A DNA stretch of 64,000 bases, from the NCBI GenBank assembly GCA_947629255.1, contig CANRDF010000001.1, positions 758 to 64,757 on the forward strand, written 5' to 3'. How positions within the stretch are numbered: position 1 is the first letter of the stretch; every line of letters begins with the position of its first letter. Origin of the DNA: an uncultured Bacilli bacterium. GTDB taxonomy: Bacteria; Bacillota_I; Bacilli_A; RF39; UBA660. Both the position numbers and the translations under genes were made by a program. Below the pieces are notes generated by a model that ran no database searches, had not been told where the DNA came from, and worked only from the letters and a program-made list of their open reading frames with translations. Positions 2,785 to 17,473 of the stretch are shown in pieces.

Positions 2785-4077
2785 CTATCCTAAACTCATC
2801 TTTTCTAGAACCTCACCTTTTAACTGTTTCCCATCATTCTCAGTAATATGCACTTTTACCATCGTATTATTTGGAATTTCTTCTTTTACAGAAACTCTTA
2901 AATAGTTGCTTGTAAGGCCTGTACTGACTTCCCCACTTTTTTCAATCAACACTTCTAAATCTTGACCAATAAATTTTTTAGCATAAGATACTTCTAGTTC
3001 TTCGGATAACTCGCATAAAACATGAGAACGTCTTTTTTTCTCTGTGTCACTTACTTGAACTTCTTCTGGAGCTTTGGCAGACACCGTTCCATCTCGTTTC
3101 GAAAATGGAAAAACATGAATCTTACTAAAAGCAAACTTTTTCGAATTTTCTACTGTTTCTTCAAATAACTCATCGGTCTCATAAGGATGACCTACTATAA
3201 TATCGGTTGTAATGGAAACATCCGGACGAATCTCCCGAATTTCTTTTAATTTATCTTCAAAATATTTTAAATCATATTTACGATTCATTTTCTTTAAAAC
3301 TTCATCACTGCCTGCTTGTAAAGGAATATGAAAATGATTACAAATCTTTGGATTATGACGAAGTTCTTCCATAAATTTTTCATTGAGTTCAGTCACTTCA
3401 ATCGAAGAAATACGAATTCGTTTTAAATTTTCTAATTTACTTGCTTCATGAATTAAATCGGTTAAATCATAAGGAGTTCCAAGTCCATAAGACCCCGTAT
3501 GAATCCCTGTTAAAACAATTTCTTGATGACCATTGTTCACAAGACTTTCCATTTCTTTTAAAGCTACATGAAAGTCTTTACTTCTTGGTACTCCTCTTAC
3601 AAAAGGAATAATACAATAACTACAGAAATTATTACATCCATCTTGAATTTTCACAAAAGCTCTAGTATGAGTTGTAAACTTATAAACTTCCATATCTTCA
3701 AAAGGAAGTTCCCTCGTTTCATTAAAAATAGTAATTGGTTGATGATTTTTTTGATAATCTTCTATAAGTTCTACAATTTGACTTTTATCTTTATTCCCTA
3801 GTAAAATATCGATTCCCATTGTTTGATAAAGAGTATTTTGATTTTCTGAAGAACACCCACATACAACGAGAATAGCACCCTTATGACGATTACGAAAACG
3901 TTCGACCATCTCTTTTGATTTATGGTCAGCTACATTCGTCACCGTACAAGTATTGACAATAATAATATCTGGACTTTCTTTATCATAAACATATCCATGT
4001 TTCAAAAGTTTTTCTTGCATCATTTCTGATTCATAAGTATTTACTTTACAACCAAGAGTATAAATATAAAAGGTCAT
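2785..4077 (-). CDS. radical SAM tRNA methylthiotransferase, MiaB/RimO/MtaB family (MtaB-like by size)
   Basis: N-terminal MTTase domain (YTLGCKVN). Radical SAM CxxxCxxC motif (CNNFCSYC) and a C-terminal TRAM-like region. Start moved to ATG 4077 (MTFYIY), which has an AGGTGAGG RBS; the ORF-track start is a GTG. Confidence 0.8.
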   Translation of the reverse strand: MTFYIYTLGCKVNTYESEMMQEKLLKHGYVYDKESPDIIIVNTCTVTNVADHKSKEMVERFRNRHKGAILVVCGCSSENQNTLYQTMGIDILLGNKDKSQIVELIEDYQKNHQPITIFNETRELPFEDMEVYKFTTHTRAFVKIQDGCNNFCSYCIIPFVRGVPRSKDFHVALKEMESLVNNGHQEIVLTGIHTGSYGLGTPYDLTDLIHEASKLENLKRIRISSIEVTELNEKFMEELRHNPKICNHFHIPLQAGSDEVLKKMNRKYDLKYFEDKLKEIREIRPDVSITTDIIVGHPYETDELFEETVENSKKFAFSKIHVFPFSKRDGTVSAKAPEEVQVSDTEKKRRSHVLCELSEELEVSYAKKFIGQDLEVLIEKSGEVSTGLTSNYLRVSVKEEIPNNTMVKVHITENDGKQLKGEVLEKMSLG

Positions 4078-4129
4078 ACCCCTCACCTCGTTTCCTTATT
4101 ATACAAAAATTTTATGTAAAAGAAAAGAG

Positions 4130-4784: not shown

Positions 4785-5999
4785 TTATTTACTTTCAATC
4801 ACATAAGGATTATCCATCGTTCCAAGTCCTGTAACCTTTACTTTCTTGGCTAATGTAATGACAGGTCTTACAAACAAACCACTTGATTCTGAAATGTCTC
4901 TTGTTAAAGATCCATCAGGTGAAACCGCAATATAAGAGATGTTATTGTTTTCTTTTTTATTTGGAGTCATGGTCCACCAAGATGCCTGAAGGGAATCTTT
5001 ATACAAATAGTAATCTTTGTTTTCTATTGTATCTCCTCCAGCAAACATCACTTCATCGGCAGTAAGTAAGGCCACTTTTTCGGATAACGTTGTTCCTCCA
5101 CAAGCATTTGTTGGCATTTTCTCATCAAAGATTCGGATATTTGATAAATATTCAATACGATTATTTTCATCTGTTAACATACTATCATCATAACAATACA
5201 AAGTACTTACAATTTGCGAGTCCACACTTCCTAAGTAATTTTCATACCAAGTATTTAAATACTCTTTCACAAGGGAGTCATTAAAAGCATAAGGAGTTTC
5301 ATTGTTTTCTTCTTTCATCTTCACTAATTCTTCCGAAGTATTATTTAACACTAATTTGACAGTTTTATCTTCATTAATTTTAACAATTCGCCATAGAAGC
5401 CCTGCGAATGATACATAGTTATTTTCTACATTTCCATGAAAGTAATACATCGTTCCATATTGTTCTAATTTTTCAATTAAACCTATGGCACTAGCATCTT
5501 CGGTCGTTTCTTGACTAGCCAAAATCGTACTTGCAAATGTCTCATCCATTTCATCAATATCTGTTTCAATCTCAAATTTTAAATCAGAATTAAGAGGATT
5601 ATTCACACTTAGATAATAACGATGTGTTTCCATTGGTTTTAACTCATAACGACTCACAATCACAGTTCGTGATAAATTACTTTCAATTGTTTCAAAATCT
5701 TCATTTGTTGAGGTTACTTTGTAAGTCACTCCATCGGTACTTCCAGAAATATTTGTTAAATGAACATAATAAAACATGGGATCACTAGACTGATTGGTAA
5801 TTGAAAACTCTAATATATTTTTACCTAACTGATAACTTTTCCCAGATAGATAATTCACTGATAAATCATCATTGACATAGGTATAGCCTAAAGAATCTTC
5901 TTGTCTTCCTAAATATGCTTGATATTGTAACAAGATAAAGACACATAAAACCATTCCACAAATAATAAACATTAATGATACTCGATATTTTTTACGCAT
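4785..5999 (-). CDS. secreted/membrane-anchored protein, paralog of the SipW-type signal peptide family (C-terminal NPY motif)
   Basis: N-terminal KK + TM. WRI(V/I) core motif and C-terminal MDNPYVIESK shared with the 860- and 461-aa paralogs. Own TTGACA-17-TATACT promoter at 6023-6051 (minus strand). Confidence 0.55.
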   Translation of the reverse strand: MRKKYRVSLMFIICGMVLCVFILLQYQAYLGRQEDSLGYTYVNDDLSVNYLSGKSYQLGKNILEFSITNQSSDPMFYYVHLTNISGSTDGVTYKVTSTNEDFETIESNLSRTVIVSRYELKPMETHRYYLSVNNPLNSDLKFEIETDIDEMDETFASTILASQETTEDASAIGLIEKLEQYGTMYYFHGNVENNYVSFAGLLWRIVKINEDKTVKLVLNNTSEELVKMKEENNETPYAFNDSLVKEYLNTWYENYLGSVDSQIVSTLYCYDDSMLTDENNRIEYLSNIRIFDEKMPTNACGGTTLSEKVALLTADEVMFAGGDTIENKDYYLYKDSLQASWWTMTPNKKENNNISYIAVSPDGSLTRDISESSGLFVRPVITLAKKVKVTGLGTMDNPYVIESK

Positions 6000-6098: not shown

Positions 6099-7310
6099 TT
6101 ATTTTGTTTTGACAACTAAATAATACTTCTTTTTTCCACGGCGAATGATATTATATTTTTTGCTCTTTAAAACCATATTTTCATCTTGGACAATTTCTCC
6201 ATTCACACTGATGGCACGACCACCAAGGAACTCTCTTGCTTCTCGTTTGGAAGAGGCAATGTTATGATTGACTAAAAAATCAATTAACGGAGCACTTTCA
6301 TATTCTACCTGAGGAACTCCTTTAAAAACAGTCTCAATTTCTTCTTCGGTTAAATTTTTCACATTCCCTGTAAACAAACTATTTGATACTTCTTCAGCAT
6401 GAAGGTATTCTTGCTCTCCATGTAAATCGGTAATGATTTCTTTTGCAAGTGTTTTTTGAGCAAGTCTTTGTTCAGGTGATTCTTTTTGAATTTTTTCAAT
6501 ATCTTCGATTTCTTCTTTCGATAAGAAAGTTAATTTCTTTAAATAATCAATCACAAGTTCATCATCGGTATTAATTAAATATTGATATAATTCATAAGAA
6601 GATGTTTTATTTTTATCAAGCCATAAAGCATTTCCTTCGCTTTTCCCAAATTTATTTCCATCTTTATCTAAGACAAGAGGCATGACAAGTCCGTAGACTT
6701 CTTCCCCAGTTTTCTTTTTGACTAAGTCAACACCTGCTGTAATATTTCCCCATTGGTCACTTCCCGCAACTTGTAAAGTACAACCTTCCGTTTCATATAA
6801 ATGAAGAAAATCTAGGGCTTGCATAATCATATAAGAAAATTCGGTATAAGTAATTCCTGTTTCTAATCTTCTTCTTATAATATCTTTATCTAACATATAA
6901 TTCACATTAAAGTATTTTCCATAATCTCTTAAAAAATCAATAAAATTAATTTCTTTACTCCAATCCCAGTTATTCACAATTTCAAATCCAAAAATATCTT
7001 TTGCTTGACGAGATAATCCTTCCACATTTTTTTCAATTTCTTCAACAGATTTCATTTCTCTTTCGGCACTTGGTTTAGGATCCCCAATTCTTCCTGTCGC
7101 ACCACCAATCAAAAGTAATGGACGATGCCCAGCTTTGGCTAATCTCTTACAAATCAAAAATGAAGAATAATGCCCAATATGCATAGAATCTGCCGTGGGG
7201 TCTGTTCCAATATAAAAAGTAAGTCCTCCTTTATTTAACTTCTCAATAAGTTCTGGAGAAGTAATGTCTTTCACAAGTCCTCTCCACTGTAAATCTTCAT
7301 ATACTGTCAT
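6099..7310 (-). CDS. tyrS: tyrosine--tRNA ligase
   Basis: HIGH motif (MHIGHYSSF) and KMSKS-like KFGKS. C-terminal S4 domain. Start set at MTVYEDLQWRGL (ATG 7310). Confidence 0.92.
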   Translation of the reverse strand: MTVYEDLQWRGLVKDITSPELIEKLNKGGLTFYIGTDPTADSMHIGHYSSFLICKRLAKAGHRPLLLIGGATGRIGDPKPSAEREMKSVEEIEKNVEGLSRQAKDIFGFEIVNNWDWSKEINFIDFLRDYGKYFNVNYMLDKDIIRRRLETGITYTEFSYMIMQALDFLHLYETEGCTLQVAGSDQWGNITAGVDLVKKKTGEEVYGLVMPLVLDKDGNKFGKSEGNALWLDKNKTSSYELYQYLINTDDELVIDYLKKLTFLSKEEIEDIEKIQKESPEQRLAQKTLAKEIITDLHGEQEYLHAEEVSNSLFTGNVKNLTEEEIETVFKGVPQVEYESAPLIDFLVNHNIASSKREAREFLGGRAISVNGEIVQDENMVLKSKKYNIIRRGKKKYYLVVKTK

Positions 7311-7569: not shown

Positions 7570-9110
7570 TGATATAATACTACCATAAGAAGGTAGGTTT
7601 TCTAAGAGTATGTGTGAAGAGTTAAAAAAAGAAATAGAAGAAAGTCAAAATTTAGGAAGAAGAGAAAGAAAAATAAAAGAAAGACAATTGCAAAAGAAAT
7701 ATAAGGATAAAACAATAAGAATCAAGTTTGGAAAAAAATTTACTAAATCTCCTGGCTTAAGTAGAGAACAACAAAGAGAATTATTAAAAGATAAAAACTT
7801 ATTAAATGAATTAAGAAAAATTATCAAAAAATATTTTCCTGATTTAATGTCTTTATTTTCTAAACTTACGGATAAAAGACACAAAAGTTATGTTACTTAT
7901 AAAATGAGAACAATTATTATGACTAAATTGTTTGCTTTACTATGTGGTATTACAACTATGACAGGCATTAATGATGAATTTCATACAGAAGAAGCAATTG
8001 AAAATTTATCTAAAATTTGTAATCAAGAATTAAAAGAAATACCTGATTGGCAAACAATACAGGATGTGATAGAACAATTAGATTATAATGAGATTGATGA
8101 TATTAGAAAATATATGTTTAAAGCTTTACTTAGAAGTAAAATGTTTGATCGATTTCGTTATAATGGTTGTATTCAATTAATTGTAGATGCTACAGGTCTT
8201 ACTGCTTTAGACTATAACTTAAATGGCAATTGTTTAACGAGAACAAGAGATGGGAAAACAAAATATTATAAATATGTTTTAGAAGCCAAAGTAGTATTCG
8301 GCAACATGCTTATTAGTATTGATTCGGAATGGATTGAAAATAACAATTTCAATAATGAAAAAGATAAACAAGATTGTGAAACAAAGGCTTTTAAAAGAAT
8401 GGCACCTAGAATCAAAAAGAATTATCCTAAATTAAAGTTTATTATTACAGGAGATGCCTTATATGCAACTACTCCTATGATTAATCTTTGCCAAGATAAT
8501 AACTGGCATTATATTTTTAATCTTAAGAAAGATCGATTAAAAAATATTTATGAAGAATTTGAAGATAACATCAATTATGAAAATGAAGTTTCTAAAGAAA
8601 ATTATTTTTTATCTTCTAATATTTTATTTAAAGATAATAAGATTAATGCTCTTCGATACATAGAAGTAAAAGAAGATAAAACAACCGTTTTCAATTATAT
8701 TACTGATTTATCCGTAGATACTTATAACATTGAAGAGATTGTTAAGATGGGTAGACGTCGTTGGAAAATTGAAAACGAAGGTTTTAATGAGCAAAAGAAT
8801 GGAACTTATAAAATAAGTCATTTATGTAGCAGATTTGAAAATGCATTAAAGATTCATTATCTATTTATACAAATTGCTCATACCATTAGACAATTACTAG
8901 AATTGGGTTCTTTGGTTGTTAAATCCATAAAAAGATATGTGAAGAAAAAAGAAATAAGCAAAGATATCACCCACACGCTTATTTCTTCCAAAATCACAAA
9001 TCTAGAAAGTTTAGATTTAAACTTTCAATTAAGATTTGATGATTAGATTATACTACTAAATTTGACCTTTGAAAACTAGTGTGGGTGATATTTTTATAAT
9101 TTTGATTTTT
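7570..9110 (+). mobile_element. IS element carrying an IS4-superfamily DDE transposase (boundaries approximate)
   Basis: Single transposase ORF with an extended -10 (TGaTATAAT, 7570-7578). Terminal repeats not confidently identified. atactac occurs at 7577 and 9055. Confidence 0.45.
7610..9046 (+). CDS. DDE transposase (IS4/IS1634-like)
   Basis: 478 aa. C-terminal RRRWKIENEGFNEQK resembles the IS4-family R-x3-E-x6-K signature. Lys/Glu-rich N-terminus. Confidence 0.7.
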   Translation: MCEELKKEIEESQNLGRRERKIKERQLQKKYKDKTIRIKFGKKFTKSPGLSREQQRELLKDKNLLNELRKIIKKYFPDLMSLFSKLTDKRHKSYVTYKMRTIIMTKLFALLCGITTMTGINDEFHTEEAIENLSKICNQELKEIPDWQTIQDVIEQLDYNEIDDIRKYMFKALLRSKMFDRFRYNGCIQLIVDATGLTALDYNLNGNCLTRTRDGKTKYYKYVLEAKVVFGNMLISIDSEWIENNNFNNEKDKQDCETKAFKRMAPRIKKNYPKLKFIITGDALYATTPMINLCQDNNWHYIFNLKKDRLKNIYEEFEDNINYENEVSKENYFLSSNILFKDNKINALRYIEVKEDKTTVFNYITDLSVDTYNIEEIVKMGRRRWKIENEGFNEQKNGTYKISHLCSRFENALKIHYLFIQIAHTIRQLLELGSLVVKSIKRYVKKKEISKDITHTLISSKITNLESLDLNFQLRFDD

Positions 9111-9307: not shown

Positions 9308-9769
9308 TTAATTCATTTTCTTAGATAAAATTAAATTTTCTTGAGATAAATCTTGATATTCTTGAAGCGTTTCTTCCCAAGACTTTCCAAAGTGTTGATC
9401 TTTATATTCCGTAATTGTTCTTTCAGTCACTTCTTCTCTAGAAAAAATACTATTTTCAGAAATATTTAATTTATTTTGACAAATATAGAAGAGAAATAAT
9501 GAAGCATCTTGCATTCCTTCTAAAGTATAAGAATATTTACGATCCATCAAAAGAACATTCATTCGAAGTAATGGAAGTTTCATACCAGTAACAATTTCAG
9601 TTACATATTTTTTATGAAAAAATTTTTCATTCACAATAAGATTGTCGACAACTTCTATCGCATCTTGTTGAAAAATTCCATGACAGCAATGATAATAATT
9701 ATCGTTTTCCCGTGCTTCTTCCAAATTTTTGGGTCTACACAATTTCATTTTATATAACATCTTTTTCAC
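9308..9769 (-). CDS. hypothetical protein (bacteriocin-cassette associated)
   Basis: 153-aa ORF inside the repeat-bounded cassette. Confidence 0.4.
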   Translation of the reverse strand: MKKMLYKMKLCRPKNLEEARENDNYYHCCHGIFQQDAIEVVDNLIVNEKFFHKKYVTEIVTGMKLPLLRMNVLLMDRKYSYTLEGMQDASLFLFYICQNKLNISENSIFSREEVTERTITEYKDQHFGKSWEETLQEYQDLSQENLILSKKMN

Positions 9770-9822
9770 CCGAGAATTACAGTATCACAAAAAAAATAAA
9801 AAATCAATCAAATTTAAATGCA

Positions 9823-10758
9823 TTATGATCTATTATTGTTTTTTTGCTCCACTTTCTGAATTACTGTTAGTATAATTAAAAAGATTGTCGCGAGAATAAG
9901 TAAAAACCATATATTTTTGCTTAACGCATTCATGAAATAATTAATAAATGTATTAGCGCTCTCCCATTGATTCATTAAAAAGTCTTTTCCAATAGTTCCA
10001 ATCATAATTTCAACAAAAACAAAAAGGAAAATATAAACTAAAATAGTATTTTTTAAATAAAGAATATATTTTTTAGAATGAAAATGAAGACATACCAAAC
10101 AAAACGCACTTATAAGGAGAACGCTTAAAGCAACACAAATATAAGTTGTACTCATAAACATTTTTAACAAACCTGTCACATCTTTTAAAGTAATATTTTG
10201 ATATACAATAATATTTCCTTCTTCCATCTTTTTTAAGAATACATTCGCAGTCGGGAAAAAATTCATGACTTCTCCTGCATACTCATGAATAAAATTCACA
10301 ATCTTTTGTTTATCTTTCTCTGAAAAAGATTTATGATTCTCTTGTAATTTGGCATCAATCACATAAAAATTATCAGTGGCCAATTGAATCAAATCATCTT
10401 TTGTAATACTTGCTTTATCTTCTTGATAAATGATATAGTTTAAAACATCATAAGTATATTTACCAATAAAGTTCTTGGTCGCTTTACTGTTTAACACAGA
10501 ATCAATTGTATCAGAAGGAATAGATAAAAATTCTAAGAATTCTCGCATTTCCTCAATAAAAACAGGTTCTTTCCCGTAACGATCCTGTAGCAAAAAAGAT
10601 AAATCATTATTTTCAATATTAGATACAATTTCGCTTTCTCGTAAATTCCACTTTAAAAGAAAAGAAATAGTTAAAAAAATACTAGCACTTAATATGATAA
10701 TAGATAAAAAAACAGATACGATTTTCTTTCCCATTTCCATCACCTTCTTGTTCTTCAT
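9823..10758 (-). CDS. polytopic membrane protein (candidate immunity/accessory protein)
   Basis: 311 aa with an N-terminal TM and a C-terminal TM cluster. Sits in the bacteriocin cassette. Confidence 0.45.
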   Translation of the reverse strand: MKNKKVMEMGKKIVSVFLSIIILSASIFLTISFLLKWNLRESEIVSNIENNDLSFLLQDRYGKEPVFIEEMREFLEFLSIPSDTIDSVLNSKATKNFIGKYTYDVLNYIIYQEDKASITKDDLIQLATDNFYVIDAKLQENHKSFSEKDKQKIVNFIHEYAGEVMNFFPTANVFLKKMEEGNIIVYQNITLKDVTGLLKMFMSTTYICVALSVLLISAFCLVCLHFHSKKYILYLKNTILVYIFLFVFVEIMIGTIGKDFLMNQWESANTFINYFMNALSKNIWFLLILATIFLIILTVIQKVEQKNNNRS

Positions 10759-10861
10759 TCATTTTATCACAAGTTTTTTTGTTTGTCATTCTATATCGTA
10801 TTTATGGGACGAAAGCCGAATAAAATACATCAAAATGAGAAAATTACTACTAGGTGATAGT

Positions 10862-11299
10862 ATGAATTTTGAAAGGATTCGTTTTGTAAGAGAAATGCTA
10901 GATCTTTCTGGGAGACAACTTGCTAAAAAGCTAAACTTAACAAAATCAACTGTCTCAAGATGGGAAACTGGAGAAAAAGTAATTCCTTTAAAACATCTCA
11001 TTACTTTATGTAATGAAACGATGATCAGCCTCGATTTTGCTTTAGGATTATCTAATGATCGATCCAAAATCACAGAAAAAAGAGAATTAGATCCAATATG
11101 GATTGGGAAACATTTAAAAATTCTAAGAGAACAGAAGAAAATTACTCAATCAGAATTAGCCAAACTTTTAAACACATCTCAATCAACAATATCATCTTAT
11201 GAAAGTGGGAAAACGACAATACTGACTGCATTTCTTTATTCCATTTGCAAGCGTTATAAAGTATCTGCAGATTGGATTTGTGATAATAATGAATCTTGA
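10862..11299 (+). CDS. tandem-HTH XRE-family transcriptional regulator
   Basis: Two Cro/C1-type HTH units (LAKKLNLTKSTVSRWE and LAKLLNTSQSTISSYE). Start at MNFERIRF with RBS AGGTGA. Paralog of 46515-46952. Confidence 0.75.
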   Translation: MNFERIRFVREMLDLSGRQLAKKLNLTKSTVSRWETGEKVIPLKHLITLCNETMISLDFALGLSNDRSKITEKRELDPIWIGKHLKILREQKKITQSELAKLLNTSQSTISSYESGKTTILTAFLYSICKRYKVSADWICDNNES

Positions 11300-11349
11300 A
11301 ACTGCCGTTCTCCTGGTATCATTGTAACACACATCACAATAATATACAA

Positions 11350-11378
11350 GAAAAAACTAGAAAAATTCTAGTTTTTTT
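11350..11378. terminator. bidirectional terminator between the convergent regulator and bacteriocin operon
   Basis: CTAGAA-aaa-TTCTAG flanked by A6 and T7. Confidence 0.5.
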
Positions 11379-11535
11379 AGCAAAAATTTTTTTTCACAAA
11401 GCGACTTATGGCAGACCCAAAAGCACGACCAAGTTCAAAAATTTTTTGAAATCCATCAACAATTGCATTTACCATACTTGCTGTGATGGATGCGCCTCCC
11501 TCAATTTGAAGAAGTTCCTGAGAGTTTAATTTCAT
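11377..11535 (-). CDS. double-glycine-leader bacteriocin precursor peptide 2
   Basis: Manual translation gives (MEN)MKLNSQELLQIEGG|ASITASMVNAIVDGFQKIFELGRAFGSAISRFVKKNFC. The leader fits the LSxxELxxIxGG consensus. RBS AAAGGA. Alternative start ATG at 11544. Confidence 0.75.
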   Translation of the reverse strand: MKLNSQELLQIEGGASITASMVNAIVDGFQKIFELGRAFGSAISRFVKKNFC

Positions 11536-11550
11536 ATTTTCCATTCCTTT

Positions 11551-11691
11551 CTATTTGTTGCATTTGAGTGGTCTTGTGATTCCATCTAAGAAACCACCAA
11601 GAAATGAAATGACGCCTGCGATCACTCCACCAATTACGAGCCAGCTTACTCCACCACCATAAGTGGCTAAGAGTTCCTCTTTTTCCATCAT
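11551..11691 (-). CDS. double-glycine-leader bacteriocin precursor peptide 1 (GxxxG-rich)
   Basis: Manual translation gives MMEKEELLATYGG|GVSWLVIGGVIAGVISFLGGFLDGITRPLKCNK. Strong RBS AAAGGAGGTGA. ATGA overlap with the upstream ORF. Confidence 0.75.
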   Translation of the reverse strand: MMEKEELLATYGGGVSWLVIGGVIAGVISFLGGFLDGITRPLKCNK

Positions 11692-12158
11692 GGGTCTTCA
11701 CCTCCTTTCAAGGTTTTGATAAGAATTTCCATAAGGCTTTTCTTATCTTCAATTAAAGTAACATCAATCGTTTCTTTATCGTAAAACTCAAGTTTAGGAA
11801 TTTCTAAAGAAACGGTTTCATAAGCGACATTTTGGATCACTTCTATACTTCCAAATTCTTTGACTTTCAAAGAATATTTTTTTGATTTGATCCATAATTC
11901 ATTACTTTCTTTTAAATTTTTTGCATGAGAATATGGCATCAAAACTTTTAAAGTACAATCATTCTTCTTACATTCATATAAACCTTGCAAAGGAATTGTT
12001 TCTTCAATTTTGTAGAAGAACAAAAGACTAATACAAAAAAGAAATAAAAGTAAGAAAAAAATTAAAAATTTTAACTTTGTTTTTTGATGTAACAAGGCAT
12101 ATATGTTATACTGTGGATTTTTTGTTTGCAAATGTAATCTTCCTTTCAAATAAATCAC
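11688..12158 (-). CDS. membrane-anchored small protein of the bacteriocin operon (possible accessory/immunity)
   Basis: 156 aa with one N-terminal TM. Overlaps the transporter 3-prime end and peptide 1 start (translational coupling). Confidence 0.45.
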   Translation of the reverse strand: MIYLKGRLHLQTKNPQYNIYALLHQKTKLKFLIFFLLLFLFCISLLFFYKIEETIPLQGLYECKKNDCTLKVLMPYSHAKNLKESNELWIKSKKYSLKVKEFGSIEVIQNVAYETVSLEIPKLEFYDKETIDVTLIEDKKSLMEILIKTLKGGEDP

Positions 12159-14145
12159 TATGATCTTTATGACTAATATAAATAACGGTTTTCCCCTTTA
12201 ACAATTTTCGAATTCCCCCAATAATCTTCACTTCCATCGAATCTTCCACTTCACTTAAAACTTCATCGAGTAAATAAACACTTCCCTCTTTCATTAGAGC
12301 CCGAGCAAGTAATATTCTTTGTCTTTCTCCACCAGACAAGGAAGAATCATTAATGAATGATGCATAACGAAGAGGCTTTTTACTTACAATCGATTCAATC
12401 TCACAAGCCCGACAAACCTCATCAAAATGTTTACCTTTTTCACTACCCATTAAAATATTATCTTCAATAGTTCCCGCGACAAAAGACTCGTTTTGACTTA
12501 AGTAAATGACGGAAGAACGAATCTCAGACAAAGTATAATCTTCTAAATCTTTTTCTAAAAAAGTAATTTTTCCCATATAATCCGTAAGTTCTCGATGCAA
12601 AATTTTACACAAAGTACTTTTTCCACATCCACTCGGTCCATCTAAGAAGACATGTTCTTTCGCTTTCACTTTAAAACTAAAATCAACAATACTTTCTTTG
12701 ACATCATTATAAGAATAACTAATATGTTTTCCTTCAATACTTGGAACAGGAATCACTGATGTAGTCTTCACTTCTTCTTCCTTAAGTTCCATCGTTTCAC
12801 TTAATTTTGAAAGAATCCCTTTCATATAGTAAAATCTTGGCAATAAATCTGTAAGTTCTTTTAAAGGATTTATAAAATACAAATATAAACTTTGAAATAA
12901 AAGAAAATCATAAATAGTTAAAATGTTATCTTTCACTAAAATCATTCCATATGTCATTAAAAGAAAGAACAAGATTTCTAAAAAGTTTTCCCTGATAAAA
13001 TCAATCACAAAAGCATGACTTTTTTCTTTCGTATTTAAAATCACGGTTTCACAAAGACGTTCTTCCATGGTTTGAATCGAGTATTCTGTTAAATTTAAGT
13101 TTTTCATACTCGGATAAAGTTTGATTTTTTCCATAATAAATTCATTCCATTTAGTATTATTTTCCATTAAATGTTTTATAATTTTATAGTAATACCTTGA
13201 AGTAAGAGAACTAATGACACAGTAAAGAAACATACCAAGAACGACAACCAGAGTGAGATGATAATCTAAGAAAAACAAAAGAACTAACGAAGAAATACCA
13301 AGAATTCCTTCAAGAAAAAATGTTATACAAATCTGAATAAATAAGTCTTTTACATTTTTTGCTTCTTCAATTCTTGTAATGATATCTCCTTCATGAAAGC
13401 TTTGAAATTTTGGCATGGGAAGTTTTAATAAATGAGAAACAAATGAATAAAGATAAGTTACTTCTACATTTCGATTTAGTTTCAATTCCATTTTTCCTTT
13501 TCCATAAGTAAAAATACATTTGAGAATTGTAAATCCTAAAAAGATTCCAACAAAAAGCCAAAACTGTTGATTCGAAAACAAAGGAGTATATTCCATTCCA
13601 ATTTTTAAATAAAAACTCGAAAGAATCGAAAGAACAGAAATCATAAGACTTAAGAAAACAATGACAAAAATATTTTTCTTTTCTCTTTTAACAATCTCCA
13701 TCACATGTTTTAAAACACTTTTCTCTTTTGGAATTCTAGGAATATAAGTTCTTGGAATGGCCACTAAAACTATGCCATCCCATATGGTTTGTAATTCTTT
13801 CTTTAAAACTTCTCTTTTTCCAGAAGACGGATCCATAATCGTTACACTTTTTTCACTAATTTTAGTTAAAACAACAAAGTGCTGCATTCCATTTGGTAAT
13901 ACAAAATGAAGAATGGCTGGAAGCGGAATTTCTTTTAAATGATTCATATCACTTTTTTCGCCAAAAGAATCAAATTGATATTTCTTTAACGTTTCCACTA
14001 AATGATAAGCAGTCGTTCCATTCTGATCAGTATAAGTATCTTCTTTTAATTTTTCAATAGGCACATATCCATGATAAAACTCTATAATATAGAGAAGACA
14101 TGTTACTCCACAATCTCTAAAATCTCGTTGTACAATCGACTTCAT
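12106..14145 (-). CDS. bacteriocin ABC exporter with N-terminal C39 peptidase domain
   Basis: C39 catalytic Cys (RDCGVTC) and His (HFVVL). Six-TM region, Walker A GPSGCGKST, LSGGERQR signature, LLDE Walker B. Confidence 0.88.
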   Translation of the reverse strand: MKSIVQRDFRDCGVTCLLYIIEFYHGYVPIEKLKEDTYTDQNGTTAYHLVETLKKYQFDSFGEKSDMNHLKEIPLPAILHFVLPNGMQHFVVLTKISEKSVTIMDPSSGKREVLKKELQTIWDGIVLVAIPRTYIPRIPKEKSVLKHVMEIVKREKKNIFVIVFLSLMISVLSILSSFYLKIGMEYTPLFSNQQFWLFVGIFLGFTILKCIFTYGKGKMELKLNRNVEVTYLYSFVSHLLKLPMPKFQSFHEGDIITRIEEAKNVKDLFIQICITFFLEGILGISSLVLLFFLDYHLTLVVVLGMFLYCVISSLTSRYYYKIIKHLMENNTKWNEFIMEKIKLYPSMKNLNLTEYSIQTMEERLCETVILNTKEKSHAFVIDFIRENFLEILFFLLMTYGMILVKDNILTIYDFLLFQSLYLYFINPLKELTDLLPRFYYMKGILSKLSETMELKEEEVKTTSVIPVPSIEGKHISYSYNDVKESIVDFSFKVKAKEHVFLDGPSGCGKSTLCKILHRELTDYMGKITFLEKDLEDYTLSEIRSSVIYLSQNESFVAGTIEDNILMGSEKGKHFDEVCRACEIESIVSKKPLRYASFINDSSLSGGERQRILLARALMKEGSVYLLDEVLSEVEDSMEVKIIGGIRKLLKGKTVIYISHKDHSDLFERKITFANKKSTV

Positions 14146-14264
14146 AAAAATATCCTCCTATATATATATTCAAGAAAAAGTGCCAATTTCCTTTTTTTTT
14201 ATGCAAATTTCTTCAAAAAAGTTAAAAATTTTACATTCTGTTTACGTTTTTGATTATTTTTATC

Positions 14265-14340
14265 ATTCTTCTTTACATTTTGCATACGCTACATAAAAGT
14301 GTAAAGAAAAAGTAAAGAAATTGTTCTTTACTCATCTATA
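14265..14340. promoter_or_regulatory. repeat-rich putative operator/promoter region upstream of the bacteriocin operon
   Basis: Four copies of TTCTTTAC/GTAAAGAA in alternating orientation, including the palindrome CTTTACATTTTG..CAAAAGTGTAAAG. A T9 tract sits at 14195-14203. Confidence 0.4.
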
Positions 14341-14348
14341 TTTTTTTA

Positions 14349-14657
14349 CTATTTTTCTTTTAACTCTTCAATTGTCTCTACGGATAAACCTGTAATTCTA
14401 GAAATTTTTTCTATTCCTAGCTCATGAATTTCTTCTAACATATTCTTAGCTATCTCCCTACGTCCAGCGTCAAGTCCTTCTCCATAAAAAACATTTTTAA
14501 GATTCTCTTCCCAATTGTAGATTTTACGTAACTCTTTGTCTTGTCTTAAATCAATTGGACTTGTTGCTATCGTCATTAAGTCATCATCTCCTCTTGCAAT
14601 TTGCTTTCTTTTCTTCTCTGATGTTTCTTGCATTAACCATAAGTGTCTTAGTAGCAA
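14349..14657 (-). pseudogene. remnant of an Rpn-family (PD-(D/E)XK) putative transposase, C-terminal fragment only
   Basis: C-terminus EGLDAGRREIAKNMLEE..ISRITGLSVETIEELK matches the conserved Rpn/YhgA tail. The ~220-aa N-terminal nuclease domain is absent. Confidence 0.45.
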
Positions 14658-14890: not shown

Positions 14891-17473
14891 TCATTCCACT
14901 AATTCTAACTCATATGGGTTTTCATAACTTCCATCTTTACCATTATCTTTTATTTGAACATTTTGTTTCAAATATAAGGTAGGTCGAATCGCATTGGAAT
15001 GATTTGGGCCATATCCTTTATAACTGGGGTAGGAACAATGAACAAATCCAGTATTGGTCATTTGAAAAACATATGCATTCCCCGAGAAGAAATATGAAAC
15101 CGACAACATCCACACATTATCAGAGATATCAGTCGAATATAGCCAATCATGTTCCTCACAACTCGTATTATAATCACTTAAATCAGTTTCTAAGCAAGAA
15201 TCTCTAACTGCTCCCCCTGCCGCATAACCATAGTCACTTGGATACATGACGGCAATGCTATGGAATAAATTTTGGTCTAATTCACCATTCGCATCCTTGG
15301 TATTTTCTCTAGTCCAATAAGAAGTCGAAGCTTTGTTGGGTATAATGTTGCTTCTCTCCCATTTATAAAAGGTAGGAGTATTATCATATCCATAACCCAT
15401 GATAGCACCTGTGTCCCAAATAATTTCTTCGTCTATCATGTTTGTATCACTTAAAGTTGAATAATACGTTTCATTTAAATACCGCATCAAATCTGAATCA
15501 GTCCAGTCAGTGTGAGAGGAATCAGAATCCCATTGCCGATTTCCTATACTATCATTGCTAATTATTTTGAACCTTTTTTCAGTGGTTCCAGTTGATGTTT
15601 GGACATTCACAAGTCCTATAATTCTCCATAATTCATTGTTAAATGTTAAATAATTATGAACATAATCTGTACTACTGTCTGTGTAGTTATCTCCTGCATA
15701 ACGGCATTCATTCTTTTTCCAAAATTCTATGCTAATATCTGAATGTTCTACCATATATAAGCCATTTCCTTCTGTTACAATAGGAACATTTTTAATTGGA
15801 GATACCAAGATTGTTTTGGATGTTTCATTTGCATTTCCAGATTCATCTGTTACTTTTACAGTGATGGTGTAATTCTCACATGGTATAACTGAAAATTTAT
15901 GACTATTTTCTCCATTTTCCCAGTTTCCTTCATCTATTTTATATTCATATGATTGAATTCTTGTCTCTTGATCTGCACTTTTACTTGCATCTGCTAGGAT
16001 TGTGTTTCCATTGGAACTTAATTGTAAATCGACTGTTGGTGGAGTTACATCTATATAAGATATTTGAATAGAACTGTGAGTTACATTGTTATATGCATCT
16101 TTGGCATAAACATAATAAGTTCCATTTTCTGTTACTGGGTAATCTGCATTATAACTTTTTGGATTGCCGTCTATTGTTATCCATGTTTCTGGGTCTTTTG
16201 CTTCTGTCATCACTTGATATCCAAATAATCCTGCTTTTTCATCACTTAAATTGATATGGATTTTATCACTTTCTCCCCAAGCAGTTAAATCATTTGTAAG
16301 AGTAATTGTTGGTGGTTTTTTATCAATAATATCTGTACTATATTTCATTGAACTTGTGTGTCCCAAAGCATCTTGAGCAAATATATAATATATTCCATTA
16401 TCTTCTATTGTTTGATTTACTATATAATCATTTTGAGTTTTCTCTACACTTTCCCATTCACTTGGTGGAGCTGGGGTACTTTCTGATAACAACATAATTG
16501 GTGTTAAATCTTCTTTGGTGATTTGATATTTTACTAAGCCACTTTGAGAATCTTTTAGGGTTATTGTTAATTCTACTGATGTATGATTGTCTTTTTGTTC
16601 ATATTTAATATCTGGTCCTACTGTATCAATCTTTGTCACTTCAAATTCTTTTTCTTTTATATTTCCCATTTCATCTTTTACCGAAAAATAATATTTTCCT
16701 AATTTTGTAAAATCTTCTGTAATTTCAAATGTTGTATTTTTATCACTAATTGGTTTCCAATTTTGAGTTTCTTGCATTTGACTTATTTTATATTCTATTA
16801 ATTTATACTTTTCACTAACTGCTTTTAAAGTGATACTCTCACTTTTTTCATTATATTCTGCTGTATTTGAGTTAGCACTTAATATAATATTATTTTCTAA
16901 TTGCTCTGTTGTTTTATATGTTGCTACGACTGTAATCTTACTTTTAAAGTAAGCATTCATAACTTCTTCGATGGGTGGTGTTTCCTCATCTAACCATAAT
17001 CTTAAATGGTAAGTTACACTTTGATTTTGCCCATCTAATATTCCTGTTGTTAATCTATGAGACTTAGTTGCATTTTCTAATGTTTCTTTGACGCTTTCAT
17101 AATCACTTAACACTAATGGCGTTCTATCGTCAAGTTGAACTTTTAGATATTTTTCTGGTAAAAGTTTTTGTTCTTCTTCTAATTGTAATGTTTCCAGATT
17201 TACTTGATAGGTTAAAGAAGTAGGACATATATTGGTAATGGTAAATTCGTATGGAGTTAATTCTTCTCCTTCTTCATCTGAAATCGGAAATGCTTTTTGT
17301 AATGAAATAGGATTTTTCTCATCTGTTAAAGTGACTTTAAAACAACTAGATGCAAGCGTATCATTATCCATTTGAGAAAGTCTAAGTTCCCAGAACGCAT
17401 AAGTCACTCCTACTACACTTAATAATAATATACTTAATCCTAAAATAAATAAACTTGTTTTCTTTCTTTCCAT
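14891..17473 (-). CDS. large secreted surface protein with SipW-cognate-type signal peptide and Ig-like repeats
   Basis: N-terminus KKTSLFILGLSILLLSVVGVTYAFWE resembles the TasA/camelysin signal. Repeated TVGPD/PPTITL/TPPTVDL modules. C-terminal WRIIGLVNV...NPYELELVE homology with the 461-aa paralog. Confidence 0.6.
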   Translation of the reverse strand: MERKKTSLFILGLSILLLSVVGVTYAFWELRLSQMDNDTLASSCFKVTLTDEKNPISLQKAFPISDEEGEELTPYEFTITNICPTSLTYQVNLETLQLEEEQKLLPEKYLKVQLDDRTPLVLSDYESVKETLENATKSHRLTTGILDGQNQSVTYHLRLWLDEETPPIEEVMNAYFKSKITVVATYKTTEQLENNIILSANSNTAEYNEKSESITLKAVSEKYKLIEYKISQMQETQNWKPISDKNTTFEITEDFTKLGKYYFSVKDEMGNIKEKEFEVTKIDTVGPDIKYEQKDNHTSVELTITLKDSQSGLVKYQITKEDLTPIMLLSESTPAPPSEWESVEKTQNDYIVNQTIEDNGIYYIFAQDALGHTSSMKYSTDIIDKKPPTITLTNDLTAWGESDKIHINLSDEKAGLFGYQVMTEAKDPETWITIDGNPKSYNADYPVTENGTYYVYAKDAYNNVTHSSIQISYIDVTPPTVDLQLSSNGNTILADASKSADQETRIQSYEYKIDEGNWENGENSHKFSVIPCENYTITVKVTDESGNANETSKTILVSPIKNVPIVTEGNGLYMVEHSDISIEFWKKNECRYAGDNYTDSSTDYVHNYLTFNNELWRIIGLVNVQTSTGTTEKRFKIISNDSIGNRQWDSDSSHTDWTDSDLMRYLNETYYSTLSDTNMIDEEIIWDTGAIMGYGYDNTPTFYKWERSNIIPNKASTSYWTRENTKDANGELDQNLFHSIAVMYPSDYGYAAGGAVRDSCLETDLSDYNTSCEEHDWLYSTDISDNVWMLSVSYFFSGNAYVFQMTNTGFVHCSYPSYKGYGPNHSNAIRPTLYLKQNVQIKDNGKDGSYENPYELELVE

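Follow-up and report, generated by a model that had tools for sequence, protein, structure and literature searches.

Do two short reading frames on the minus strand of a 64,000-nucleotide stretch of DNA from an uncultured Bacilli bacterium (assembly GCA_947629255.1, contig CANRDF010000001.1; the whole stretch is called the window below) encode the two halves of a bacteriocin, and if so, of which kind? The sequence-only reading had placed two double-glycine-leader peptide genes, each of fewer than 60 amino acids (aa), in 11377-11691 and had proposed a putative class IIb two-peptide bacteriocin. Both open reading frames (ORFs) are indeed present there, on the minus strand, with 46 and 52 aa, and we call them pep1 and pep2. 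Judged from sequence comparison, the best explanation is that the locus represents a new family of sequences belonging to a known kind, i.e. class IIb-type peptides exported by a peptidase-containing ATP-binding cassette (ABC) transporter (PCAT), which falls in no curated bacteriocin family. We put the probability of a four-gene operon that makes a class IIb-type two-peptide bacteriocin, from a sequence family not characterised before, at roughly 0.68. The proposal draws support from the operon anatomy, the PCAT, the GxxxG motifs, the cationic mature forms and the conserved pairing of the two genes, while the operon holds no recognisable immunity gene.

The operon is read on the minus strand from the exporter gene through an accessory gene, pep1 and pep2 to a terminator hairpin, with the following parts:

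14146-14348, minus strand: upstream intergenic region, with a promoter-like site TTTACA-17-CAAAAT at 14305-14277 (promoter scan)
12106-14145, minus strand: C39-peptidase ABC exporter, 679 aa, the first gene of the operon, with a strong AGGAGG ribosome-binding site
11688-12131 (TTG start, 147 aa) or 11688-12158 (GTG start, 156 aa), minus strand: accessory protein gene
11551-11691, minus strand: pep1, a 46-aa prepeptide
11377-11535, minus strand: pep2, a 52-aa prepeptide (the alternative start at 11544 gives 55 aa)
11345-11377, minus strand: intrinsic terminator hairpin, a 12-bp stem between an A tract and a U tract, which closes the operon

The peptide genes had been described as lying directly downstream of the exporter with an ATGA translational overlap. 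The ATGA overlap exists, but it joins the stop codon of the accessory gene to the start codon of pep1, and the 147-156-aa accessory ORF lies between the exporter and the peptides. The two peptide genes are separated by 15 nt, and a single terminator follows pep2.

The translation of pep1 is MMEKEELLATYGGGVSWLVIGGVIAGVISFLGGFLDGITRPLKCNK, which divides into a 13-aa double-glycine leader, MMEKEELLATYGG, and a 33-aa mature part, GVSWLVIGGVIAGVISFLGGFLDGITRPLKCNK. Its start lies 9 nt downstream of an AGGAGG site. The mature peptide is hydrophobic with a charge of +2, a grand average of hydropathy (GRAVY) of 1.0 and a membrane-spanning hydrophobic stretch. It carries two GxxxG motifs (G9xxxG13 and G20xxxG24), as had been noted, and a conserved C-terminal tail RPLKC. 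The pep2 ORF at 11377-11544 translates to MENMKLNSQELLQIEGGASITASMVNAIVDGFQKIFELGRAFGSAISRFVKKNFC, 55 aa from MENMKLN. Translation more probably begins at MKLNS (11535; 52 aa): this ATG has an AGGA site 9 nt before it, to which the MENM start leaves no spacing, and MKL is also where the orthologues P0006 and P0007 begin. Behind a 14-aa double-glycine leader, the mature pep2 is predicted to be ASITASMVNAIVDGFQKIFELGRAFGSAISRFVKKNFC, a 38-aa cationic peptide (charge +3) with strong amphipathicity (an 18-residue hydrophobic moment of 0.69), a C-terminal Cys and, beyond what had been claimed, one GxxxG motif of its own (G22xxxG26, GRAFG). Both leaders fit the double-glycine consensus as proposed, with M-12, E-8, L-7, T-4 and GG in pep1 and L-12, E-8, L-7, I-4 and GG in pep2.

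Are such short frames genes at all? A word-indexed search of 5.8 billion proteins gave homologues of pep1 in only 4 clusters and of pep2 in only 3, all of them from metagenomes or metagenome-assembled genomes (MAGs); a diverged copy of pep1 also occurs in locus L011. The hosts found in our genome scan are 'uncultured Bacilli bacterium' MAGs from rabbit ('Lapin') samples and one rumen MAG, the close homologues being confined to the rabbit-gut MAGs. The order on the homologous contigs is exporter, accessory protein, pep1, pep2, a convergent helix-turn-helix (HTH) regulator and a membrane protein. The two genes are under purifying selection at the protein level: among four species-level variants the nonsynonymous-to-synonymous ratio (pN/pS) is 0.04-0.35 for pep1 and 0.10-0.56 for pep2, i.e. 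0.04-0.56 overall, while pS reaches 0.6-0.8, near saturation. The GG, the GxxxG motifs and the Cys are invariant among the close variants, and 22 residues of pep1 are invariant among its homologues, including the GG, the GFLDG motif and Cys44. Purifying selection, independent homologues and the occurrence of the gene pair in dozens of unrelated metagenome loci indicate that both ORFs are real and not due to chance. The genes had been called unannotated; they are nameless, but gene callers did call both as hypothetical proteins on sibling metagenome contigs. Three matches of the genome scan (L020-L022) were rejected as false positives, being MATE-type transporters having the string LSFLGGFLDG.

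The family extends well beyond these close relatives. An exhaustive profile search with the pep2 alignment gave 217 representative clusters at E<=1e-3, nearly all of 49-57 aa. A GG leader is present in 113 of the 117 listed members of at most 60 aa, and a single Cys in 102 of them. The mean identity inside the family is 39%, and its consensus is approximately leader-GG-A.IS..L.NAI.RG......LGRSLGSAIRR......C. The sole source name that we found in it is 'hypothetical protein', from a chicken-gut Candidatus species. A metagenome scan with a 6-sequence alignment gave 47 loci, 11 of them named as human-gut assemblies, which were then scanned with hidden Markov models (HMMs) built here; the window pep1 scores 97.8 bits against our pep1 HMM. 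In the pep1-type peptides of the wider family a GG leader is followed by a hydrophobic segment rich in Gly and by the tail F(L/I)IG(V/L/I)(I/V)DG(Y/F)xRPLxC.

How regularly do the two genes occur together? ORF calling restricted to ATG starts gave 25 of the 31 distinct informative loci a pep1-type gene upstream of pep2, at a spacing of -13 to +65 nt. Four of the six apparently pep1-less loci have an intact pep1 with a TTG or GTG start, and once these are counted an intact pep1 lies directly upstream of pep2 in 29 of the 31 loci. The two unpaired loci are visibly disrupted, with a pep1 remnant in L023 and a pep2 truncated at its 5' end in L070.

In L023 (7800-8000) pep1 is cut to its last codons (GYVRPLKC) beside a prophage-like gene block, and in L031 (4288-6000) the same remnant, the last 8-10 codons, lies beside a large serine recombinase gene. 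L031 and L029 have identical pep2, yet pep1 is intact in L029; a mobile element therefore seems to have inserted into pep1 in L023 and L031. Mobile elements seem to use the pep1 gene as a site of integration.

The motifs are as regular as the pairing. GxxxG is kept in all 36 pep1 and in 113 of the 120 pep2 sequences. A Cys follows the motif by exactly 7 residues in 35/36 pep1 and by exactly 12 residues in 96/113 pep2, and both partners carry the canonical Cys in all 29 intact pairs. Three pep2 relatives lack the Cys; in two of them the pep1 partner is also without its canonical Cys, while in the third it is retained. The chance of finding both Cys-less pep1 among three Cys-less pep2 is 3/496, i.e. 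~0.006, ignoring phylogeny. These three cases are suggestive of a coupling between the cysteines, perhaps through an intermolecular disulfide. No thiol-disulfide oxidoreductase gene was seen in the related loci.

The exporter has the Pfam domains Peptidase_C39 (N-terminal, 1e-30), ABC_membrane (six-helix) and ABC_tran, and aligns over its full length to PCAT1 (4RY2, 2e-71) and to ComA. The catalytic Gln6 (oxyanion), Cys12, His89 and Asp105 are kept, as are the Walker A, Walker B and signature motifs. By these sequence features it is a PCAT, with all three domains in one chain and the catalytic set intact. Its best NCBIfam matches are the Mbov_0121 family (308.3 bits, cut-off 500) and TIGR01193 (297 bits, cut-off 524); since both scores are below the cut-offs, it formally belongs to neither. 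The accessory protein is predicted to have a single transmembrane helix at its N-terminus and an extracytoplasmic domain rich in beta structure, and matches the MAG1140 family weakly (31.1 bits, under the cut-off of 35). By sequence score, then, the two proteins are related to the Mbov_0121 and MAG1140 equivalog families and are not members of them. In the wider family a C39 ABC exporter, 27-32% identical to that of the window, lies directly upstream in most loci that are long enough, with a 116-150-aa single-pass protein usually encoded between it and pep1.

One relative stands apart in its coding. In L019 (7982-9985), from the rumen MAG RUG630 labelled 'uncultured Clostridiales', a conserved Trp of the exporter's peptidase domain is encoded by an in-frame TGA, which indicates genetic code 4, and the organism is therefore probably Mollicutes-like. 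The peptide leaders of this locus end in AG instead of GG.

The hairpin downstream of pep2 has a folding energy of -10.4 kcal/mol (z = -3.9) that none of 200 shuffled sequences matched. A consensus terminator scanner overlooked it because its stem has fewer than three G-C pairs. It could serve both directions, as the convergent HTH gene ends at 11299. Repeated (A)TGTAAA boxes stand at 14272-14278 and 14230-14236, 5' of the exporter gene, and are followed by a conserved block reaching the ribosome-binding site; in an alignment of four species (the window and three sister species) the arrangement is common to all. The boxes are possible operator sites, an idea resting on cross-species conservation only, since across the window the 7-mer shows no enrichment. 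An Rfam scan of the window gave two tRNAs only and no match within the locus, and the GC content is ~30% throughout.

How would the producer protect itself? In many loci of the wider family the pep2 stop is overlapped by a third gene of 45-59 aa, whose leaderless product is basic at its N-terminus and has a transmembrane helix. The C-terminal end of this product is homologous to the final 28 residues of the pep2 family (92% probability and E = 8e-7 in hhalign), so that a membrane-anchored decoy or immunity protein is plausible. Copies lie at:

L027, 2608-2775: third gene
L029, 393-542: third gene
L035, 6153-6317: third gene
L039, 6144-6293: third gene
L044, 3019-3186: third gene
L071, 4657-4827: third gene
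L075, 786-962: third gene

One human-gut lineage (L060-L068, e.g. L060 6169-6306) has instead of this anchored gene a third double-glycine peptide after pep2, with MSNEELMSVHGG as the leader and RLSITISYSYNSVMGYLYTLGRRIGTYFNRLFH as the mature part, which is pep2-like and without Cys.

The genes around the operon in the window are the following:

10862-11299, plus strand: double-HTH XRE-family regulator, ~145 aa from MNFERIR (the mechanical ORF starts at 10694)
9823-10758, minus strand: membrane protein, ~303-311 aa, with four predicted transmembrane segments and a ~180-aa external domain
7610-9046, plus strand: DDE transposase gene
14349-14657, minus strand: Rpn-family recombination nuclease/transposase, C-terminal remnant

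The membrane protein has no Pfam or NCBIfam match, is syntenic at 39-82% identity in L016-L018 only, and is absent from the wider-family loci. As the only nearby membrane protein suited to the role, it is, together with the accessory protein, a speculative immunity candidate for the rabbit-MAG clade. The regulator matches Pfam HTH_3 twice and has no ligand-binding or tetratricopeptide repeat (TPR) domain; its start was set by comparison with orthologues (143-154 aa). Its gene runs towards the peptide operon (convergent) and away from the next gene (divergent), is syntenic in all rabbit-MAG loci, and may be part of the peptide system. The next gene is that of the membrane protein, which forms a two-gene minus-strand unit with a 153-aa soluble protein (9308-9769); this unit has no family match, is divergent from the regulator and is syntenic in rabbit MAGs only, and it may be an unrelated module under the double-HTH repressor. 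One rabbit-MAG species has an extra 181-aa soluble protein of unknown family between pep2 and the regulator (L011 3668-4213, also L012-L015 and L018), which is absent from the window.

The transposase and the Rpn remnant bracket 9308-14657, which suggests that the operon and its neighbours lie in a mobile or rearranged segment. Housekeeping genes (tyrS, ezrA, an aminotransferase and an MMPL transporter) are found in the flanks. DUF6273 proteins are encoded on both sides of the bacteriocin region, at 14891-17473 (minus strand, 860 aa, also with PKD/Ig-like domains) and at 4785-5999 (minus strand). At 29 of the 48 informative loci of the wider family, rpsU (ribosomal protein S21) is found within 2 kb downstream of the operon, and yqeY follows rpsU in most loci with listed ORFs. 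The window has neither rpsU nor yqeY, and transposase remnants flank its operon instead. The S21 genes start at:

L023, 8270: S21 gene start
L032, 6261: S21 gene start
L035, 6437: S21 gene start
L039, ~6394 (in ORF 6334-6588): S21 gene start
L048, 6305: S21 gene start
L071, 4999: S21 gene start

What would such a system do? The scheme proposed here starts from what the sequences show directly (gene structure, leaders, intact peptidase residues, conservation, pairing, and the spacing of motifs and Cys), whereas the cleavage site, export, synergy, membrane target, disulfide link and immunity provider are inferred. The two prepeptides would be made in about equal amounts, with pep1 translationally coupled to the accessory gene and pep2 starting 15 nt after pep1. 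The C39 domain of the exporter would recognise the double-glycine leaders, cut after the GG and export the mature peptides, with the accessory protein assisting. The 33-aa hydrophobic, GxxxG-rich peptide and the 38-aa amphipathic cationic peptide could then permeabilise the membrane of related bacteria by helix-to-helix packing at their GxxxG motifs, and the single conserved C-terminal Cys of each peptide may further link the pair.

How well does this picture agree with class IIb? All characterised two-peptide bacteriocins are encoded by adjacent genes in one operon and have double-glycine leaders, quoted as 15-30 aa, that are cleaved by a dedicated ABC transporter; GxxxG motifs are thought to mediate helix-helix pairing, and an immunity gene is in the operon (PMC2850506). 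Our locus has two adjacent, different peptide genes in one operon and GxxxG in both peptides, and its leaders fit the consensus register next to an exporter with an intact C39 set. We use 'class IIb' as a functional and not a homology assignment, because no immunity gene is recognisable, no curated bacteriocin family matches, and antimicrobial activity and synergy are putative.

Several observations weigh against this assignment. The main one is that no immunity gene is recognisable in the operon: pep2 is followed by the terminator with no ORF in between, and the pep2-like third gene is absent from the whole window and also from the rabbit-MAG clade. The predicted leaders of 13-14 aa are slightly shorter than the quoted range. 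Against the lactGbeta_entB / lactococcin G-enterocin 1071 models (NF038034, NF038035) pep1 scores 15.7 and pep2 12.6 bits with a cut-off of 37, and against TIGR03949 (lactobin A / cerein 7B class IIb) they score 14.5 and 14.2 bits with a cut-off of 21.5. The conserved site upstream of rpsU suggests vertical inheritance and looks less like the strain-variable islands typical of bacteriocins. The structure predictions were uninformative: AlphaFold2 on P0136, a natural read-through call fusing pep1 and pep2, gave two helices without usable packing (predicted local distance difference test 57, predicted template modelling score 0.30). More generally, no model covered the family in Pfam and NCBIfam scans of the window peptides and 120 relatives, where the matches were sub-threshold and at the level of the leader. 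TIGR03949 at E<=0.01 matches 16 of the 120 relatives only, and Pfam Bacteriocin_IIc (PF10439) matches neither window peptide at this threshold and gives weak matches in 14 of the 120. Literature searches gave no description of this family, the precursor sequences of the human-gut class II mining study with its 4,186 unique double-glycine precursors (PMC12648112) not being compared.

The most serious alternative is that the pair is a conserved secreted product with a pheromone-like or other non-antagonistic role (signalling, membrane physiology or host interaction), exported by a PCAT secretion system typical of Mollicutes-related gut Bacilli. The single conserved rpsU-yqeY site in those 29 of 48 loci would suit such a role, as would the resemblance of the exporter and accessory protein to Mycoplasma-defined families, the TGA=Trp usage in L019 and the lack of an immunity gene in the window. 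However, a search for a pheromone circuit gave no histidine kinase, response regulator or RRNPP-type receptor within ~10 kb or in related loci (neither kinase nor response regulator appeared in Pfam scans of window ORFs 110-25999), and the adjoining regulator consists of two bare HTH domains. Mature lengths of 33-38 aa, a membrane-spanning GxxxG segment and amphipathic cationic helices typically characterise pore formers and not pheromones, and the third gene of the relatives resembles an immunity mimic. The pair is also dispensable, since some host lineages have survived the insertion of mobile elements into pep1. We consider this alternative unlikely.

Could the two genes instead be two independent one-peptide (class IId) bacteriocins sharing one exporter? 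Operons with several unrelated double-glycine bacteriocin peptides are common, and L060-L068 hold a third such peptide. Yet pairing and order are kept in 29 of 31 distinct loci despite the 39% mean pep2 identity, GxxxG and Cys stand at fixed spacing in both peptides, the canonical Cys is lost jointly in two of three Cys-less cases, and the relatives have one immunity-like gene per pair. The near-universal pairing in a fixed order makes this explanation quite improbable. A modified two-component peptide, e.g. a two-peptide lanthipeptide with Ser/Thr-Cys thioethers, would account for the Ser/Thr and the one Cys in each peptide, and class II lanthipeptides likewise use GG/GA leaders and C39 ABC exporters. 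But no LanM, radical-SAM maturase or other modifying enzyme was found in the operon, its flanks or ~50 related loci; the only radical-SAM gene (2785-4086) is 7 kb away and of MiaB/RimO type (UPF0004 + Radical_SAM). Since no maturase was found, a ribosomally synthesised and post-translationally modified peptide is very improbable. A bolder extension of the class IIb-type reading, about which we are doubtful, is that of a widespread unrecognised two-peptide toxin of uncultured gut Bacilli and Mollicutes-like bacteria, acting as a Cys-Cys covalent heterodimer, with a leaderless anchored copy of the pep2 C-terminus as decoy in most lineages; a less specific form would be that the rpsU-adjacent operon is non-antagonistic.

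If active, the class IIb-type pair would give a first handle on interbacterial antagonism in uncultured small-genome gut Bacilli (rabbit, rumen, chicken and human gut), and would define a peptide family, with 217 representative clusters for pep2 alone, that is unnamed in current domain databases. The single Cys per partner and the pep2-like anchored third gene are leads on assembly and self-protection, both only partly understood for class IIb. The mature peptides, of 33 and 38 aa and predicted to be unmodified, are accessible by synthesis. New double-glycine peptides are routine in genome mining, and it is the breadth of the family, its hosts and the Cys and decoy leads that set this one above a routine match.

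How, finally, does the locus compare with known systems? Like lactococcin G, enterocin 1071 and plantaricin EF/JK of class IIb, it has adjacent prepeptide genes, double-glycine leaders and a C39 exporter with an accessory protein, and its mature peptides are cationic, of 30-40 aa, predicted to be helical and provided with GxxxG, two motifs in one peptide and one in the other, an arrangement also found in lactococcin G. Unlike them, it shows no detectable homology beyond the leader, and its hosts are uncultured gut Bacilli and Mollicutes-like organisms and not lactic acid bacteria. Its accessory protein, of ~150 aa with one transmembrane helix, also differs, the usual class IIb accessory proteins being much longer. 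Besides the 13-14-aa leaders, the departures from known class IIb are three: the small MAG1140-like accessory protein, one invariant C-terminal Cys per peptide and no in-operon immunity gene. The ComC/BlpC pheromones share the double-glycine leader and C39 ABC export, whereas the window peptides are longer, form a conserved pair with one membrane-spanning hydrophobic member, and have no cognate kinase or response regulator. PCAT1 of Clostridium thermocellum (PDB 4RY2) and ComA of Streptococcus (8HF4) share the full-length alignment, the C39 residues and the ATPase motifs with our exporter, and their substrates are likewise double-glycine-leader peptides encoded beside the pump; the similarity is only moderate (244 and 216 bits), and the window exporter differs in having a small MAG1140-like partner. 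The Mycoplasma families Mbov_0121 and MAG1140 (NCBIfam NF045998 and NF045999) are the top-scoring curated families for the exporter and the accessory protein; the window proteins score below their cut-offs, and a Mollicutes-like relative with TGA=Trp carries the same peptide pair.

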